A stretch of 64,000 bases of DNA from a virus, in IMG/VR virus record IMGVR_UViG_3300025131_000006. One strand, 5' to 3'. Below, in pieces: positions 56,268-62,809 of this stretch. The translations under genes and the position numbers were made by a program. Within the stretch, counting starts at the first letter, position 1. Each line of letters opens with the position of its first letter. Below the pieces are notes generated by a model, which worked only from the letters and a program-made list of their open reading frames with translations, was not told the origin of the DNA and searched no databases.

Positions 56268-56294
56268 AAGTGCGTGTGCGGTGCGGAGGCAATC

Positions 56295-58934
56295 ATGGGT
56301 TGGCGTCCTAAGTTTTCAGAGTTGGCTTTATATAAAGCAGGCGATGGGGATGGAGAGGCATTTAGCTTGGAGGCTCCGTCGCCGGAGGCCAAGCCGAGCG
56401 AGGCACAGCAGCCAGCCAGGCCGCCGACGTCGAAGTTGGCGAACCGCGAGACGCAACCAAGCACAGAGACGGTGGCCCCGCACGAGAACGCATCCAGCCC
56501 GCAGAGCAATTCGCTGTTGCAAGATTATCGGAGGCAGTGGCAAGAGATGGGTTTGGGGCGCCAGACCATCAGCCGTTTGCGCTTCGACGGCATCGAGCAG
56601 ACAAGCCAGGGGGGAGACCCGTCCGAGGTGTGGGCTGATATTCATCGCCGAGCGGAGGGGATGGCCCACGATTACCAGATCCACGATATTGCTTCGAAGC
56701 ATGATTTGGAGATGGAGCACCGCGATCATTTACTCCAGATCGACAGTTCGTTGGAGGGTGCGGGGAAGAATCGGGCCGAGCGTATCCGAGAGTTGCGCTC
56801 TATGGCGGAGGGGATGGCTCAACTACGAGACGGAACAGCGGGTGTCGCGGATTGGGCAAGTGAGTATTTCTCTGGCTCTGAAGATATAGACGTGGATGAG
56901 TTGGACGACGGTCAGTTGGATGTCTTGCGCGGCGAGATGATCGCGATGTCTCGCGGGTACGGTCCAGATTCGGTTCGGATGCTGTTGGAGCAGATGGCGG
57001 AAAGGATGCTCGACAAGAATCGTCATGGGGGAGAGGACGACGAGGATGCAACGGGGTGGGGGAGTGATGGTGATGACGACGAGGAAAAGGTGGACCGGGA
57101 GGAGGCATTACGCCAGAGGTATCCCGACTTGAACCATGCTCAGATGGAACAGTTGCTGTTTATGGAGTTCTCAAGAGAGAGAGATGGGAGCCCGATCGCG
57201 GACAGAGATGCCTTTTTGCAAAACATAGCGGGTACATACAGAAGGTTCAACGAGAGGCAGTCGTGGACACCGACGGAGCGCGGTGAGAGAATTATCTCGG
57301 ATATGATGTCGGAGCATAAGTTCTTGGGAGAGGAGGATGCTCGACGGCTGGCATTGTGGGATGAGAGGTCTAAGCAAGCGGGTCGTTCGGAGCCTTGGCG
57401 GGATAGCCAGATTGCCTCGCGAGCCGAGAAGTTGCACCTTCGGAGTTTTGGTGAAGAGGTTGGGATTGGGGAGGAGGATTTGACTCCCTATGAGTTAGAG
57501 GAGTTGTTTGACGAGTGGGAATTTGTTATTGGGGAAGGGCTTTCGCGAGAGGCAGCGGGACAGCAGGTACGAGAGAGCTTGGAAGCGATTCTTCCTCCGG
57601 AGAGACCGTCTTTTTCAGAGACTCAAGAAGATTGGAGGGATGGGACGGCGGACAGTCGAAGTCGCTTGGGGGCTCCGAATATTCCGCACCATGCTGTGCG
57701 TGAGTACGCCGACAGAGATCATTCGTGGATGCATCCGTTGTTGGTAGATGCGAATAATCCGAGGGATGCGATCAGGCAGTTGGTGCAGAATCCTGTGTTT
57801 GCCAGTCTGGCGACAGTTGGTGGGTTAGAGGCACAGTTGGAGGAGCGCTTTGAGTATGGTTCGTTTCATGCGGAAGGACGCCTCACGTTGGGGGGGAGGA
57901 GTGCAGGAACGATAACACGAGAGATCACGGATGCCGGAGGATATTTGGTTCTGGGAAATGAACTGTTGAAGGTGGAGCCTATTGCCAGGGGGCGGGATTA
58001 TTCGTTGCAGTTTTATGCTCGGCAGGAAGATTTCTTGCGCGGGCTGACGGATCATTGGGATGACGATACCAAGAGGAAGACGAAGGTTTCTATTTCGACG
58101 GCATGGGTCGGCAAGTACCATTGGATGTCGCAAGGGTTCAGGTACTCCTCTCCAGGGGAGAGAAAGGATCATCTTCGAGGAATGATGGTGGCCTTGGATA
58201 GGTTGAGCCGCACGGGTGGGTATCTCGCTACAAGAGATGTGTCTCGTGAAGATGCAGTGAGTGCGGTTGGCCAATCAAAGAGGTTGGGAGATATTGGTTT
58301 TTCGGACAGCGATTTGGCGGGAGTGCGGTCTCAGCTAGAGGAGTGCATCGACACAGAGGCCGAGCCGTGGGACGTCTTAGAGTTGGATGTCGGCCCTGAT
58401 TTCTGGATGGGTGCCAGTGGGTCTGGATCTATTCACACAGCGGTGGCGGGTAATTTGATCAAGCTCTTGGCCTTGGCGGGCCAAGGTTGGTCTGGGGTGA
58501 AGCGGGTGCATGGGATGCGAGAGAAGGATGCGGAGGGTATTGCCTATGCCGACAGGCGTCGGCATGCGGCGGCAGAGCGTGCTCGTGAAGAGGGTCGTTC
58601 TTGGGGGTGGATGGGGCAGCGGGACAAGGCTGAAAAGGGCTTCGTTGTCAAATCAGGACGGGTTCCCGGTTATATGTATCATGATGAGTCTCCTCATAAA
58701 GATAGAGGCTTTCGAGTCCACCAAAGAGAACCGGAGCATATAGATATGAAGAGAAAAGACGATAAGTCCAGGCACAAAGAAGGAAACGACGGTTGGTTTT
58801 GGGAGGACTTGGGCGGCGAGGTAGTCCGGGCCAAAGAGCCAGATGACGGAATCGATCGAATGGTCTCGGATGACGACGCCGCAACAACAGCAGGATTCGG
58901 TGTTGTCAAGAAAGGCGATATGGACATGGACTAG
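56295..58934 (+). CDS. Large putative ejected protein with GNAT-like acetyltransferase domain
   Basis: LLKVEPIARGRDYS...VGKYHWMSQGF GNAT-like pattern; LYKAG, GFVVKSG and GFGVVKKG sites. Confidence 0.6.
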   Translation: MGWRPKFSELALYKAGDGDGEAFSLEAPSPEAKPSEAQQPARPPTSKLANRETQPSTETVAPHENASSPQSNSLLQDYRRQWQEMGLGRQTISRLRFDGIEQTSQGGDPSEVWADIHRRAEGMAHDYQIHDIASKHDLEMEHRDHLLQIDSSLEGAGKNRAERIRELRSMAEGMAQLRDGTAGVADWASEYFSGSEDIDVDELDDGQLDVLRGEMIAMSRGYGPDSVRMLLEQMAERMLDKNRHGGEDDEDATGWGSDGDDDEEKVDREEALRQRYPDLNHAQMEQLLFMEFSRERDGSPIADRDAFLQNIAGTYRRFNERQSWTPTERGERIISDMMSEHKFLGEEDARRLALWDERSKQAGRSEPWRDSQIASRAEKLHLRSFGEEVGIGEEDLTPYELEELFDEWEFVIGEGLSREAAGQQVRESLEAILPPERPSFSETQEDWRDGTADSRSRLGAPNIPHHAVREYADRDHSWMHPLLVDANNPRDAIRQLVQNPVFASLATVGGLEAQLEERFEYGSFHAEGRLTLGGRSAGTITREITDAGGYLVLGNELLKVEPIARGRDYSLQFYARQEDFLRGLTDHWDDDTKRKTKVSISTAWVGKYHWMSQGFRYSSPGERKDHLRGMMVALDRLSRTGGYLATRDVSREDAVSAVGQSKRLGDIGFSDSDLAGVRSQLEECIDTEAEPWDVLELDVGPDFWMGASGSGSIHTAVAGNLIKLLALAGQGWSGVKRVHGMREKDAEGIAYADRRRHAAAERAREEGRSWGWMGQRDKAEKGFVVKSGRVPGYMYHDESPHKDRGFRVHQREPEHIDMKRKDDKSRHKEGNDGWFWEDLGGEVVRAKEPDDGIDRMVSDDDAATTAGFGVVKKGDMDMD

Positions 58935-59019: not shown

Positions 59020-59100
59020 GCCAAGGTGGTGGAATGGCAGACACGCCGGATTCAAAATCCGGTGCCTCACGGCGTGAGGGTTCGAATCCCTCTCTTGGCA
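59020..59100 (+). tRNA. tRNA-Leu(CAA)
   Basis: GCCAAGG/TCTTGGC acceptor; CCGGA-TTCAAAA-TCCGG; long variable arm; TTCGAAT. Confidence 0.92.
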
Positions 59101-59105
59101 TAGTC

Positions 59106-59159
59106 AACACTCGACATTCTCGTGGAACGGGACTGTCCACAGACGGAGTGTCGAGTGTT
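59106..59159 (+). other. Long inter-tRNA hairpin
   Basis: AACACTCGACA / TGTCGAGTGTT inverted repeat. Confidence 0.6.
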
Positions 59160-59180
59160 TCTACTTAGTGTTTCTATTTA

Positions 59181-59253
59181 GGGTGTGTAGCTGAATGGGT
59201 TAGCGGGAGTCTTTAAAACTCTGTCCAAGTGGGTTCAATTCCCACCATGCCCG
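59181..59253 (+). tRNA. tRNA with UUA anticodon (ochre-suppressor type)
   Basis: GGGTGTG/CATGCCC acceptor; GGAGT-CTTTAAA-ACTCT; GTGGG-TTCAATT-CCCAC. Confidence 0.8.
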
Positions 59254-59266
59254 TGAGAGCAATTAT

Positions 59267-59575
59267 GTGGAAGTTATGGCAAAAAACGCAGACGAGTTGA
59301 GTCAAGCTGAAAAGGATCATTTTTACGAATTCTTAGTTGCCCATACGGGTGACTTTCTATGCTCTTGTTGTGGCCGAGATAAATGGCAAATTATGCCTGT
59401 CCGAGCACATCTACCGTCTTTGAATTTCAGGGATGGTGTCGGAACACATATGGTCCCTGTATATATGGTTTATTGTTCGAACTGTGCCAAGTTCGAGACT
59501 TTTCACGCAGCGGTTGTGCGAGAGTGGGAAAGCCAGCTTCCTCCACCAGCAGAGACATCGAACTTGGACGTCTAG
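59267..59575 (+). CDS. Small zinc-ribbon protein
   Basis: CSCCG...CSNC. Confidence 0.6.
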   Translation: MEVMAKNADELSQAEKDHFYEFLVAHTGDFLCSCCGRDKWQIMPVRAHLPSLNFRDGVGTHMVPVYMVYCSNCAKFETFHAAVVREWESQLPPPAETSNLDV

Positions 59576-59627
59576 CGAACGTTTGTGTTAGTGTTGATCT
59601 TTCAAAATAGAATAGAAAACATCTGAT

Positions 59628-59725
59628 GGATGGGTAGCTTATTTGGATAAAGCACTCTGTTTCTTTCAAACCGCCCGTTTCAAGGCCACAGAGAGATGTA
59701 GGTTCGACTCCTGCCCCATTCACCA
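59628..59725 (+). tRNA. tRNA-Arg-like with 29-nt expanded anticodon loop
   Basis: GGATGGG/CCCATTC-A-CCA; D-loop GGATA (A20); CTCTG/CAGAG stem encloses 29 nt. Confidence 0.75.
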
Positions 59726-59735
59726 TTTTATTTTT

Positions 59736-60083
59736 GAGTTTTGCGCTGTGGTTGGAAGACACAGCGGCTTCGCGGGATCGTAATGTTCGCGGGGTCGATA
59801 GAATCGAGGTCGTAAGCTCGATAGATTGGGTGGAGCCGAAAGGTCGTAATTCGTTTAGTTCCGTGGGGAGATGCCGCTCTTTAGAAAATTTACCCTTGGG
59901 AGGGTCATTTTCGAGAGGGACGCATGTTAAGCACCGTTCGCAAACGTAGAGCTTCGGCGATGAGCGAGAACGACTCGCCTCCAACGAGATTGTGGATCTC
60001 TCACGGGTGACCGCGAGAACCAAGTAAGAGCAATCGAGTTGGTTTCAATCTAGGATTGTGGGTTCGAACCCCACCAAAACTCA
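59736..60083 (+). ncRNA. About 350-nt structured RNA with tRNA-like acceptor stem and T-arm
   Basis: GAGTTTTG/CAAAACTC-A; GTGGG-TTCGAAC-CCCAC; many tetraloop hairpins inside. Confidence 0.65.
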
Positions 60084-60112
60084 CTGTTTATCAAGTCGTG
60101 CCCTTAAGTGTT

Positions 60113-60314
60113 GGTGCAGACCGGAGCAAAATGGGAAAAGACTCCGTGCCCTTGAACAATATGCCCTTATTGGGGGTGCGGTGGGGCCTTTTCGAGAGAG
60201 AGGGTTCTTCCGTGCACATGGCCATGGCAGCTTGGCGGGAAACCGAACAAGTGTCTCATATTGTGGGGTGTTCCTAGAAACCGAAACACTCACGTACCTT
60301 GAAAGAGGTGCACC
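60113..60314 (+). ncRNA. About 200-nt structured RNA
   Basis: Closed by GGTGCA/TGCACC; GAAA and GAGA hairpins; abuts the next tRNA-like gene. Confidence 0.45.
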
Positions 60315-60382
60315 GGGATCATAGATCGGGAGATCGCTCGCAGATACGGCGGGAGGTGCAGGTTCGACTCCTGCTGGTTCCA
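60315..60382 (+). tRNA. Atypical tRNA with Ala identity (G3.U70, A73), 4-nt D-loop and non-canonical anticodon loop
   Basis: GGGATCA/TGGTTCC-A; GATC-GGGA-GATC; CTCGC-AGATACG-GCGGG; GCAGG-TTCGACT-CCTGC. Confidence 0.65.
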
Positions 60383-60437
60383 CCCTTCTTGGTGCTTTTA
60401 CTCCTCCTGTTCCTGGGGTGATAACATCGAGAAGCTT

Positions 60438-60508
60438 GCTGCATTCGTCTAGTGGTAAGACGCCACCCTGTCACGGTGGAATCAGGAGTTCGATTCTCCT
60501 ATGTGGCG
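60438..60508 (+). tRNA. tRNA-Asp(GTC)
   Basis: CCACC-CTGTCAC-GGTGG; full cloverleaf. Confidence 0.9.
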
Positions 60509-60513
60509 TGATT

Positions 60514-60586
60514 GCCAACGTAGCTCACTTGGTAGAGCAGTTGATTCGTAATCAACAGGTACGCGGTTCGATCCCGCGCGTTGGCT
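60514..60586 (+). tRNA. tRNA-Thr(CGT)
   Basis: GTTGA-TTCGTAA-TCAAC; full cloverleaf. Confidence 0.92.
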
Positions 60587-60676
60587 CTTTTCTTTCTCGC
60601 ACTGTCGGGTCTGCTGGTGGTTTGTAGGTTATTTCGTCAGTGTCTTCTCGTCTGGTGTGGGAAAGAAATCTTTATG

Positions 60677-60691
60677 GTTCAGTCACTGAAC
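60677..60691. repeat. Dispersed palindrome copy 19 (GTTCAGTCACTGAAC)
   Basis: Just upstream of tRNA-Glu. Confidence 0.9.
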
Positions 60692-60696
60692 TTTTT

Positions 60697-60770
60697 GGCT
60701 CCATCGTCTAACTGGCCAGGATACCGGGCTTTCATCTCGGAAATCATGGGTTCGAGACCCTGTGGAGTCG
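60697..60770 (+). tRNA. tRNA-Glu(TTC)
   Basis: CCGGG-CTTTCAT-CTCGG; GGCTCCA/TGGAGTC. Confidence 0.85.
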
Positions 60771-60878
60771 CTGTTCGGGAGACCGCAAGGTGCGGTAGGG
60801 AGAACAGAAAGCTTGTCTTTCACAATTACAGTTGTCCACTATTCCTGTGGGAGGGTTCCCCGCCTCTCGAATAATTTT

Positions 60879-61064
60879 GCAGAGTTATCCAAATTGGAAA
60901 AGGGAATCCCTGAACAGGGATGGTTCATCGAAGAGATCGCTGATCGACGTGCCTCACTATGGGACAAAAGCGTTGTATTCGACGCATACAAACGGCAGCG
61001 AAATACCGGGGCAATCGTGGACGCACGAGATTGAGCTTTGGGGGTTCGAATCCCTCACTCTGCA
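60879..61064 (+). ncRNA. tRNA-like RNA with about 118-nt structured insert in the variable arm
   Basis: GCAGAGT/ACTCTGC-A; D-loop AAATTGGAAA; ATCCC-TGAACA-GGGAT; GGGGG-TTCGAAT-CCCTC. Confidence 0.65.
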
Positions 61065-61097
61065 TTCTGCATTCCCAAGAGATAGGAGATCCAGGAT

Positions 61098-61358
61098 ATG
61101 AAAGTTTATGTTGTGATGGTGGATGCTTATGGCATTGAAACGACTATCCAAGGCCCGGCTTTTCGCGATCCGGAGAAAGCGATTGAGAATGCTCGCGAGC
61201 TTGTGATGGATCATTGGGATGGAGAGCATGAGAGAGAGGTCCGGAGGGCTGACCCGTCGGAAGAGGAGCGTCTTTCGGCACAGGGATACCCCATCTTCTC
61301 TGAGACCTACAATTATGAGAACGACGCAGTGAAGGTTTTTGCTGTCGAGTTACAGTAA
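61098..61358 (+). CDS. Small hypothetical protein
   Basis: AGGAG RBS; TAATG coupling. Confidence 0.65.
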   Translation: MKVYVVMVDAYGIETTIQGPAFRDPEKAIENARELVMDHWDGEHEREVRRADPSEEERLSAQGYPIFSETYNYENDAVKVFAVELQ

Positions 61359-61615
61359 TGGCCATCGACGACGCTATGTTGTGGCTCAAGGGTCTCACTT
61401 ATTCCCAGCGAGACAAGGTCAAAGATTGGATTAAGGAGACTTTCGGCGGAGGCAGCTTGCCCATTTTAGTCGAGCAAGCATTCTTACACATGCCACCCGA
61501 AGTGATCGGCGGCGTATACCAAGGCATCCCAGAATTTGAAGAGAGAAGCCGGGAGTTCTCGGAGAGAGAGATTCTTCGGTTTAAAGAAGAACACTATCCA
61601 CAAAAAACAAAATAG
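61358..61615 (+). CDS. Small hypothetical protein
   Basis: Coupled ORF. Confidence 0.6.
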   Translation: MAIDDAMLWLKGLTYSQRDKVKDWIKETFGGGSLPILVEQAFLHMPPEVIGGVYQGIPEFEERSREFSEREILRFKEEHYPQKTK

Positions 61616-61634
61616 GAGGAATGGTTTCCAGTGC

Positions 61635-62051
61635 GGGGGTGAACAGGTTTTCGATCATCCAAGTACGCTCATAGATAGCACGCCGAGGATTCAGGTGGCC
61701 TCGTAAAAAACCTGAAAACCAAGCAACTGCCAACAGCAATTACTACGCCGACAAGGTTTGGAGCTTCGGAGTCGCTTGCGACGTCGCTGCACCCTGCCAC
61801 GTTAGCAACCAAGAAGTCGCCCTCTTCGCGTAAGAGGTCGCCCCTGCGTCACCTTTCCTGTGGGTGATGTGGGGAACTAAGCAGGATAGCGGTGGAGCAG
61901 TGGTCATGCCTGCCTGTGAAAAAAGACCGTTCGCCGGGACGTCCTTTTCTCTTTGTGGATGCCCGGATGAACTGAGAGCAAGGAGATAAGCGTGTAGAAG
62001 TCTGGAGTTGTCTTGAGGTGAGACGCGGGTTCGATTCCCGCCACCTCCACC
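61635..62051 (+). ncRNA. ssrA: tmRNA
   Basis: GGGGGTG...TTCGA 5' end, PK1-like region, tag ORF 61729-61833 starting ANSN and ending ALFA*, 3' GCGGG-TTCGATT-CCCGC-CACCTCC-A. Confidence 0.9.
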
Positions 62052-62330
62052 GGCACTGTGAGCGTTGGCTTGCTGTTTGGGTTCAAAGGCTCAGGCAGTG
62101 ACCCACGCTGGAACTTGCGACAAAATTCATTTACTTTGACCCTGAACGTTTTTTTGTTGCGAGGTGTGTCTGAAATATGACCACAGTGCTTGTTACTTGT
62201 GCGGGAACACATGGGTGTTCAAGGGGTCCGAAAGACCCTGGCCTCGTTGCAAGGTCAATACTCGTCGTGAAGAGCGGCGATAGTCCATGTAAGAGCATCG
62301 TGTGCAACCGCGATGTCGTTCCCGCTCCCT

Positions 62331-62400
62331 GTGGGTGTAGCTCAGTTGGTAGAGCGAGGGTCGCTCCCTGTCGGTGGTTCGAATCCACCTGCCCACACCA
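62331..62400 (+). tRNA. tRNA-like gene with shortened anticodon arm (anticodon undetermined)
   Basis: GTGGGTG/TGCCCAC-A-CCA; canonical D and T arms; AGGG-TCGCT-CCCT arm. Confidence 0.7.
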
Positions 62401-62492
62401 TTTGCTATGGAAGATGTTCGCGGGTTGTGTGTGCAGCCCACTTCCGGATATGCTATTCAAAACTTGGGTCTTCGCGAGGAGTAGTTTAGAGG

Positions 62493-62651
62493 ATGAAAGT
62501 TAGTGTCGATAGAGTGAAGAACGCTCTGAATAGATTGGAGATTGTTGCTCTCCGGGAAAGCAAGCGTCGTCGTCGCAAGTGGCTTGTGAGGACGTTTGTT
62601 ATGGGTGTTCTCTTCTTTTTCTTTGTGTTAGTGGTAACTCTTCTCCTGTAG
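62493..62651 (+). CDS. Small membrane protein (52 aa) whose end overlaps the 5' end of tRNA-Asn
   Basis: MKVSVDRV...KRRRRKWLVRTFVMGVLFFFFVLVVTLLL*. Confidence 0.45.
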   Translation: MKVSVDRVKNALNRLEIVALRESKRRRRKWLVRTFVMGVLFFFFVLVVTLLL

Positions 62652-62714
62652 CTCGATTGGCAGAGCGGCGGACTGTTAATCCGTAGGTTGTGGGTTCGAG
62701 TCCCACCAGGAGAG
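62642..62714 (+). tRNA. tRNA-Asn(GTT)
   Basis: GCGGA-CTGTTAA-TCCGT; full cloverleaf. Confidence 0.92.
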
Positions 62715-62809
62715 CAATTGCCCCTTTTGATCTGTTCGTTGGTCGGATTAAAGGGGGCATTTTTGTATATATGGTCAAAGCCTGTTTTGTCTTGAATAGG
62801 AGAGGAGCC

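Follow-up and report, generated by a model that had tools for sequence, protein, structure and literature searches.

A 186-nt tRNA-like gene with a 118-nt variable arm in the RNA cluster of a marine phage: probably a tRNA mimic that does not decode, or else a disabled tRNA

The window, that is, the whole 64,000-nt stretch of DNA analysed here, belongs to an IMG/VR virus record (G000) of 104.6 kb that is about 65% complete. A 160.6-kb ENA contig, ERZ27249081 k141_190584, is identical to the phage record, and the genome measures roughly 160 kb. It was recovered from marine metagenomes and has genes for a terminase, a portal and a major capsid protein of the SU10 type. The nearest relatives, as judged by the capsid protein, are only 55–65% identical.

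Stable RNA genes are gathered in a cluster of 3.7 kb (59020–62715), in which ARAGORN calls eight tRNA genes, with two small ORFs among them. Rfam adds a tmRNA at 61635–62052 and one further tRNA-like match. A scan of the + strand of the 64-kb window for the strict T-arm motif gave 11 occurrences, every one of them within the array (59076–62706) and provided with a pairing acceptor. Neither Rfam nor the strict T-arm motif scan brought to light any orphan T arm or partly decayed tRNA in the array. By our own count, five of the tRNA-like genes in it are aberrant, at 59628, 59737, 60315, 60879 and 62331. The one described here is the fourth, which occupies 60879–61064 on the + strand.

Several other features of this region and of related phages were recorded along the way. 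The tmRNA (RF00023, 132.7 bits) received no ARAGORN call, and its alignment to the Rfam model shows a long insertion in the tag region. An ochre-type suppressor tRNA (UUA) lies at 59181–59253 of the window. A CUA anticodon was read by eye at L004:12373–12446, directly 3′ of the capsid gene cluster in a phage with a 63% identical capsid protein, and the relative G016 has a tRNA with a CUA anticodon (L110:6247–6319), which ARAGORN labels Pyl. Suppressor-type tRNAs recur in this phage group. Two proteins, one of 886 aa encoded 5′ of the cluster (56274–58934) and one of 86 aa encoded within it (61098–61358), had no relatives among 5.8 billion proteins except the phage's own copies. Beyond the window, a protein of 1811 aa (L121:10302–15737, equivalent to G000:C1:80301–85736) combines an inorganic pyrophosphatase (InPase) domain with a C-terminal kinase-like (APH/RIO) signature, and a giant homologue of it sits downstream of the capsid module in L004.

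The element and its flanks are made up as follows.

60848–60878, + strand: terminator-like hairpin and U-run, directly 5′ of the element and abutting its first base
60879–60885, + strand: 5′ strand of the acceptor stem, GCAGAGT, 7/7 Watson-Crick with 61057–61063
60886–60905, + strand: U8, A9 and D arm, with a 3-bp stem TCC/GGA and a 12-nt loop AAATTGGAAAAG, A14 and G18G19 (seen in the ARAGORN drawing)
60906–60921, + strand: hairpin at the anticodon position, ATCCC-TGAACA-GGGAT, with a loop of 6 nt, or of 4 nt if U·A closes
60922–61037, + strand: variable-arm insert of 116 nt, closed by GGTTCA (60922–60927) and TGAGCT (61032–61037)
61040–61056, + strand: T arm GGGGG-TTCGAAT-CCCTC, a strict T-arm motif
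61057–61064, + strand: 3′ strand of the acceptor stem, ACTCTGC, and discriminator A61064 (read from the sequence)
61098–61615, + strand: two small coding-like ORFs of 86 and 85 aa, with coding scores of 0.29 and 0.12

Every outer part of a long-armed tRNA is thus kept in the 186 nt. A sequence-only reading of this DNA had described a 7-bp acceptor followed by A73, a type II-like D loop, an anticodon arm with a 6-nt loop, and a T arm. Each was found in its place: the acceptor pairs at 7/7 positions, the D loop is long and comes with U8, A14 and G18G19, ATCCC-TGAACA-GGGAT is present at 60906–60921, and the T arm is canonical. The CCA is not encoded at the 3′ end of the element. T60878 can pair with A61064 as an optional eighth acceptor pair. 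For a perfect 7-mer complement to occur within 40–420 nt upstream, the probability by chance is about 0.023, and the tRNA scaffold taken as a whole is far beyond chance. A tandem 7-nt duplication, CTGCATT CTGCATT, spans 61060–61073, running from the final four bases of the acceptor through the discriminator into the 3′ trailer.

The same reading had expected tRNA finders to miss the gene or to make a pseudo call, and ARAGORN at default settings indeed made no call on the full element. Nor did Rfam give any match over the full element, RF00005 included, even at E≤10. Once the insert was trimmed away, ARAGORN called a tRNA at default thresholds. A covariance model built from the element (R1) was then run with filters off over the tRNA arrays of four related phages. 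Its best match was a tRNA-Ser(GGA) with 29.8 bits, followed by the Ser(UGA), Tyr(GUA) and Leu(UAA) tRNAs of these phages. In the R1 alignments, the 9–17-nt variable arms of the relatives' class II tRNAs align to the element's 114–116-nt insert. The element and the tRNA-Ser(UGA) of G016 have the D-loop word AAATTGG in common, and their T arms are nearly identical too. In addition, the T arm and acceptor of the element are 85% identical over 27 nt to those of the window's tRNA-Leu(CAA) (family D7). These sequence likenesses indicate that the body of the element derives from a class II tRNA, of the long-armed Ser, Tyr or Leu type. A73, a possible A15-U48 pair and G18G19 fit the anticodon-independent identity elements known for E. 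coli LeuRS. Folding agrees with a tRNA shape, since the tRNA-constrained structure (−58 to −59.5 kcal/mol) comes close to the unconstrained optimum (−62.9 kcal/mol). The fold of the whole element has a z of −2.84 against shuffles.

The hairpin at the anticodon position has a computed energy of −5.5 kcal/mol with the 6-nt loop and of −6.7 kcal/mol with the 4-nt loop, versus +2.6 kcal/mol in the 7-nt tRNA register. In this alternative register the loop reads CUGAACA, with U33, the anticodon GAA and C37; the stem carries an A28·A42 mismatch and a G-U pair. Because the decoding register is about 8–9 kcal/mol worse than the short-loop hairpins, and has an A·A mismatch and a pyrimidine at position 37, normal decoding by the element is unlikely. 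ARAGORN does read GAA (Phe) in the trimmed element, by shifting the stem by one place. With a relaxed threshold and introns allowed, the full element is called as well, its position 38 being followed by an intron of 111 nt. This intron model turns a perfect local stem into one of 4 bp plus a C·A mismatch and leaves a variable loop of 7 nt. Its boundaries, C/A...C/G, are unlike group I splice sites.

The insert occupies precisely the variable-arm position of class II tRNAs. Its closing helix has 6 bp, two of them G-U, and encloses 104 nt; UU at 61038–61039 brings the variable region to 118 nt, about five times the class II norm. The arm had been proposed with these same limits (60922–61039) and the same closing strands, and as far exceeding normal long variable arms, and we agree on both points. 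It had also been drawn as a set of nested hairpins. All of them exist as complementarities, and the optimal fold retains two. The third, TGTAT/ATACA, gives way to GCGTTG/CGACGC, which the minimum-energy fold uses instead. Folded alone, the insert reached −32.2 kcal/mol, against −29.7 ± 3.2 kcal/mol for 200 dinucleotide shuffles (z −0.78; 39 of the 200 were as good). It is therefore no more structured than shuffled sequence, unlike what is expected of a selected RNA domain.

Other searches of the insert were equally unproductive. No Rfam match was obtained over it at E≤10. Similarity to tRNAs was below shuffle level, 98 of 100 shuffles scoring as well. The best antisense target in the phage genome was a 13-nt match with an E of 0.14, at chance level. 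The sequence-only reading had seen in this gene a tRNA-scaffolded RNA that carries a cargo and probably does not decode. The first half of this proposal holds up: the element is tRNA-shaped and probably does not decode, as the ARAGORN and RF00005 misses, the loop energies and the oversized arm indicate. The second half does not, for an insert with no above-chance fold, homologue, Rfam match or tRNA similarity gives no support to a functional “cargo” module. Some smaller features were noted in the insert. A 9-nt word, GTGCCTCAC, is common to it and to the variable arm of the window's tRNA-Leu, and was taken as chance in view of the 98/100 shuffles. Remnants of a nested tRNA or T loop, suggested by two UCGACG words, found no support in Rfam or in the tRNA-similarity test. 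A possible pseudoknot, UGCCUC (60950–60955) with GGGGCA (61008–61013), was spotted by eye.

On the 5′ side, a 107-nt spacer (60772–60878) separates the element from tRNA-Glu. It folds better than most shuffles (z −2.67; 2/200 as good) and ends in the terminator-like hairpin. No sigma-70-like promoter was found. On the 3′ side, the 86-aa ORF starts 34 nt after the element, behind an AGGAG ribosome-binding site. The element is also overlapped by an ORF of 90 aa (60762–61034), whose frame stays open across the whole insert to a TGA at 61032–61034. Translation of the stretch from this or an overlapping ORF, the outcome that would have spoken against an RNA gene, is nevertheless effectively refuted. 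The coding score of the ORF, based on codon usage, is −0.004, while the 5th percentile of real genes is 0.094. Moreover, it starts inside tRNA-Glu and runs through the terminator-like hairpin, it has no Pfam match, and the only similar entry among 1.84 billion representative proteins is the phage's own copy.

Homologues were sought in several collections. A blastn comparison of 60600–61400 with 50,697 phage records returned nothing useful. Exact-word scans of IMG/VR with three words matched only an ordinary tRNA-Gly with the same T arm and acceptor, and those of JGI metagenomes with two words gave no homologue. In 40 related virus records, as in the unfiltered run on the four related arrays, model R1 matched normal tRNAs only. 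When the element, the insert and the upstream spacer were compared by blastn with all the loci retrieved, T arms alone were matched. Phages with a 63–65% identical major capsid protein are not syntenic at this locus, and an apparent 262-nt shell in L004 turned out to be chance pairing around a normal tRNA. The element is thus a singleton with no homologue in the collections searched, and this is why it offers no evidence from covariation or conservation. Nor is there a homologue to show the insert missing or spliced out, the other outcome that would have spoken against the sequence-only reading. Similarly, it was found in three marine metagenome DNA runs with zero differences, so that there is no population variation to read; no RNA run is listed as containing it.

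What does recur is the general design, an intact outside around an altered middle, which we observed in five genes here and in related phages. In the same window, 59737–60082 forms a shell of 345 nt with a perfect 7-bp acceptor, AGTTTTG/CAAAACT, a T arm GTGGG-TTCGAAC-CCCAC and an interior of about 270 nt that has no Rfam match; it is the first tRNA-scaffolded RNA implied when the sequence-only reading counted the present element as a second. An Arg-like gene of the window has 25 extra nt in its anticodon loop. In the IMG/VR record G001, whose capsid protein is 55% identical, a tRNA-like gene of 143 nt (L113:2096–2238), missed by ARAGORN, is normal in its acceptor, D arm and T arm. It has a Glu-like 7-nt loop GUUUCCA with anticodon UUC and C37, and a hairpin of about 75 nt in its variable region. 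An 8-nt direct repeat, TTTCAGAT, occurs inside that insert and again at its 3′ edge. Four more shells with intact acceptor and T arms were also missed by ARAGORN: L110:7456–7560, with an insert in the D loop, L110:10918–11040, of 123 nt, L111:8025–8125(−), of 101 nt, and L111:3295–3380(−), with a 17-nt anticodon loop. The inserts of these L110 and L111 shells sit in the D loop or the anticodon region. No long-insert shell was present in four further related arrays. As all shells were found by means of their intact acceptor and T arms, the uniformity of the design is partly ascertainment bias.

The element is probably either a non-decoding tRNA mimic or a disabled tRNA. We lean towards a processed, non-decoding tRNA mimic, by analogy with T4 species 1 RNA and with oversized phage tRNA genes, and give this reading a probability of about 0.45. 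It is the acceptor/T-arm half of a tRNA that RNase P, the 3′ trimming activities and the CCA-adding enzyme recognise. For this reason the transcript would be expected to be cut at G60879 and, along the known route of tRNA maturation, to yield a stable RNA about 186 nt long, to which CCA is added. Such an RNA would enter the cell's tRNA-handling machinery, and would not be a routine decoder. The mechanism to which we commit is that of a tRNA mimic occupying tRNA-binding proteins. The same analogy would place it in one group with T4 species 1 RNA, the ‘enigmatic intron’ tRNAs of Lak phages and the four other aberrant shells of the array. In favour of this reading are the intact scaffold, the restriction of T arms to the array, the ARAGORN call on the trimmed element, the class II matches of R1, the near-optimal tRNA-constrained fold, the disfavoured decoding register, the non-coding nature of the region, and the existence of analogues. 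Against it stand the missing homologues and population variation, the chance-level fold of the insert, the four related arrays without a long-insert shell, the ascertainment bias, and the upstream terminator-like hairpin with no sigma-70-like promoter.

The mimic reading can be taken further, to a matured, possibly aminoacylated class II body whose 118-nt arm would act off the ribosome, as a nuclease decoy or inhibitor or as a handle for a phage protein, and which would be one of five such mimics. This extended version is improbable. Its decoy part is speculative: we see about one chance in eight that the element serves as a decoy, or as a resistant substitute, for nucleases that cut class II variable loops, such as Septu and retron-Eco7 PtuAB.

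The main competitor of the mimic reading is a disabled class II tRNA gene, which would have suffered an insertion or stepwise expansion in the variable arm and a lesion in the anticodon loop, and would persist as a neutral remnant not yet decayed further. We hold this to be possible, with clearly lower odds. Such a history would explain a singleton with no conserved relatives, an insert that folds at chance level, a defective anticodon hairpin and a CCA that is not encoded. The array itself also looks like one in decay, with five aberrant genes and long spacers, versus 13–39 ARAGORN tRNAs per array in relatives (n=8). Several observations speak against it. All 12 pairs of the acceptor/T minihelix and all elbow nucleotides are intact, and the helix that closes the insert lies precisely where a variable arm belongs. 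Furthermore, no orphan T arms or partly decayed tRNAs accompany it in the array, phage genomes are compact, and the pattern of intact shell and altered middle is found in five genes here and in relatives.

Less probable again is a working decoder, that is, a GAA tRNA for UUY codons, which would receive its amino acid from PheRS or from a class II synthetase that ignores the anticodon. The ribosome would tolerate its insert, or the insert would be removed as an unconventional intron or intervening sequence. The trimmed element is read as tRNA-Phe(GAA) by ARAGORN and the relaxed search offers its 111-nt intron; U33 and A73 are present, and no other Phe tRNA was found in the phage. The gene at L113:2096–2238 keeps a 7-nt loop beside its own variable-region insert, and Lak phage tRNAs with unexplained introns have been published (PMC6784885). 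The GAA register is nevertheless the costly one, with its A·A mismatch and a pyrimidine at 37. At 111–118 nt the insert is too short for self-splicing by a group I intron, which takes about 200 nt or more; no Rfam family, RF00028 included, matched at E≤10; the exon/intron boundaries are not U/...G; and a search of the 104.6 kb (about 65% of the genome) for RtcB, an RNA ligase and a CCA-adding enzyme found none of them. If positions 44–159 were excised, a variable loop of only 2 nt would be left. Finally, the closing helix GGUUCA/UUGAGCU has a superficial likeness to the Ro-binding helix of Y RNAs (GGUCCGA/UUGACC), which raised the idea that the element, wired in tRNA order, partners a Ro60/Rsr protein in the manner of Y RNAs. 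This idea is largely refuted, given that neither RF02553 (YrlA) nor RF00019 (Y RNA) matched the element at E≤10 and that no TROVE/Ro60 gene (PF05731) turned up in the 104.6 kb (about 65% of the genome), even at E≤0.1.

Recent work shows that phages use their tRNAs as weapons against tRNA-cleaving host nucleases, some of which attack class II variable loops. A decoy, or a mimic acting away from the ribosome, would be expected to combine a tRNA body that keeps all that processing enzymes see with a blunted anticodon loop and a variable arm of excessive size. Should shells of this kind prove to be selected, they would constitute a class of phage RNAs, for counter-defence or regulation, that has gone unrecognised. 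The element adds to them a further example, a distinct variant known as a singleton, and this copy does not by itself demonstrate a mechanism.

Compared with the class II tRNAs (tRNA-Ser, -Tyr and -Leu, RF00005), the element has the same 7-bp acceptor, the same T arm of 5 bp and a UUCGAAU loop, a D stem of 3 bp, a long D loop with A14 and G18G19, and an extra arm between the anticodon arm and the T arm. It differs in the size of that arm: class II variable regions are put at 10 nt or more (PMC7609411), and the relatives' aligned tRNAs have 9–17 nt where it has 118 nt. It departs from canonical tRNAs in that it is matched neither by RF00005 nor by default ARAGORN and lacks a stable 7-nt loop in which U33 is accompanied by a purine at position 37. 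Instead, it has a loop of 6 or 4 nt, or else a mismatched stem with C37. Nor is it a tmRNA, as its third acceptor pair is A3-U70 and not G3·U70, and RF00023 matches only 61635–62052.

Lak megaphages have tRNA genes that carry ‘enigmatic’ introns (Devoto et al. 2019, PMC6784885). These too are oversized phage tRNA genes, with inserts that fit no known intron class and are identical across the samples that have them. The models of the Lak genes, made by tRNAscan in eukaryote mode, place the insert in the anticodon loop (PMC6784885), whereas the best-paired model of our element has it in the variable arm and leaves a defective anticodon loop. The variable loop is also the site at which Septu and retron-Eco7 cut, and phage variants of tRNA-Tyr evade them (PMC13096335, PMC11555353). 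Since these systems act on the class II variable loop, a class II body with an altered arm would make a plausible decoy, although this is something that we infer. As in the element, the evading tRNA-Tyr is a phage class II body with a variable loop that differs from the host's; unlike it, it is of normal size and decodes. The link between the two is conjectural.

The closest described analogue of the element is rnaC, the gene for T4 species 1 RNA. Stable RNAs that are not tRNAs, such as T4 species 1 and species 2, have been known in phage tRNA clusters for fifty years, and to our knowledge neither of these two has an assigned function. Both genes, rnaC for species 1 and rnaD for species 2, code for stable RNAs amid phage tRNA genes, and our element would be a candidate gene of the same type. 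When we folded the 139 nt of rnaC from its GenBank record, it showed a canonical T arm, CCGGG-UUCGAAU-CCCGG, beside 5′ and 3′ ends that pair and enclose hairpins amounting to about 100 nt. Tracts of tRNA-like paired ends and a T arm around a non-tRNA interior are thus common to both. They differ in that rnaC has no recognisable D arm or anticodon hairpin and has two U·U mismatches in its acceptor-like stem, whereas the element keeps the full cloverleaf and carries all of its extra RNA in the variable arm. The likeness described here is one of architecture.
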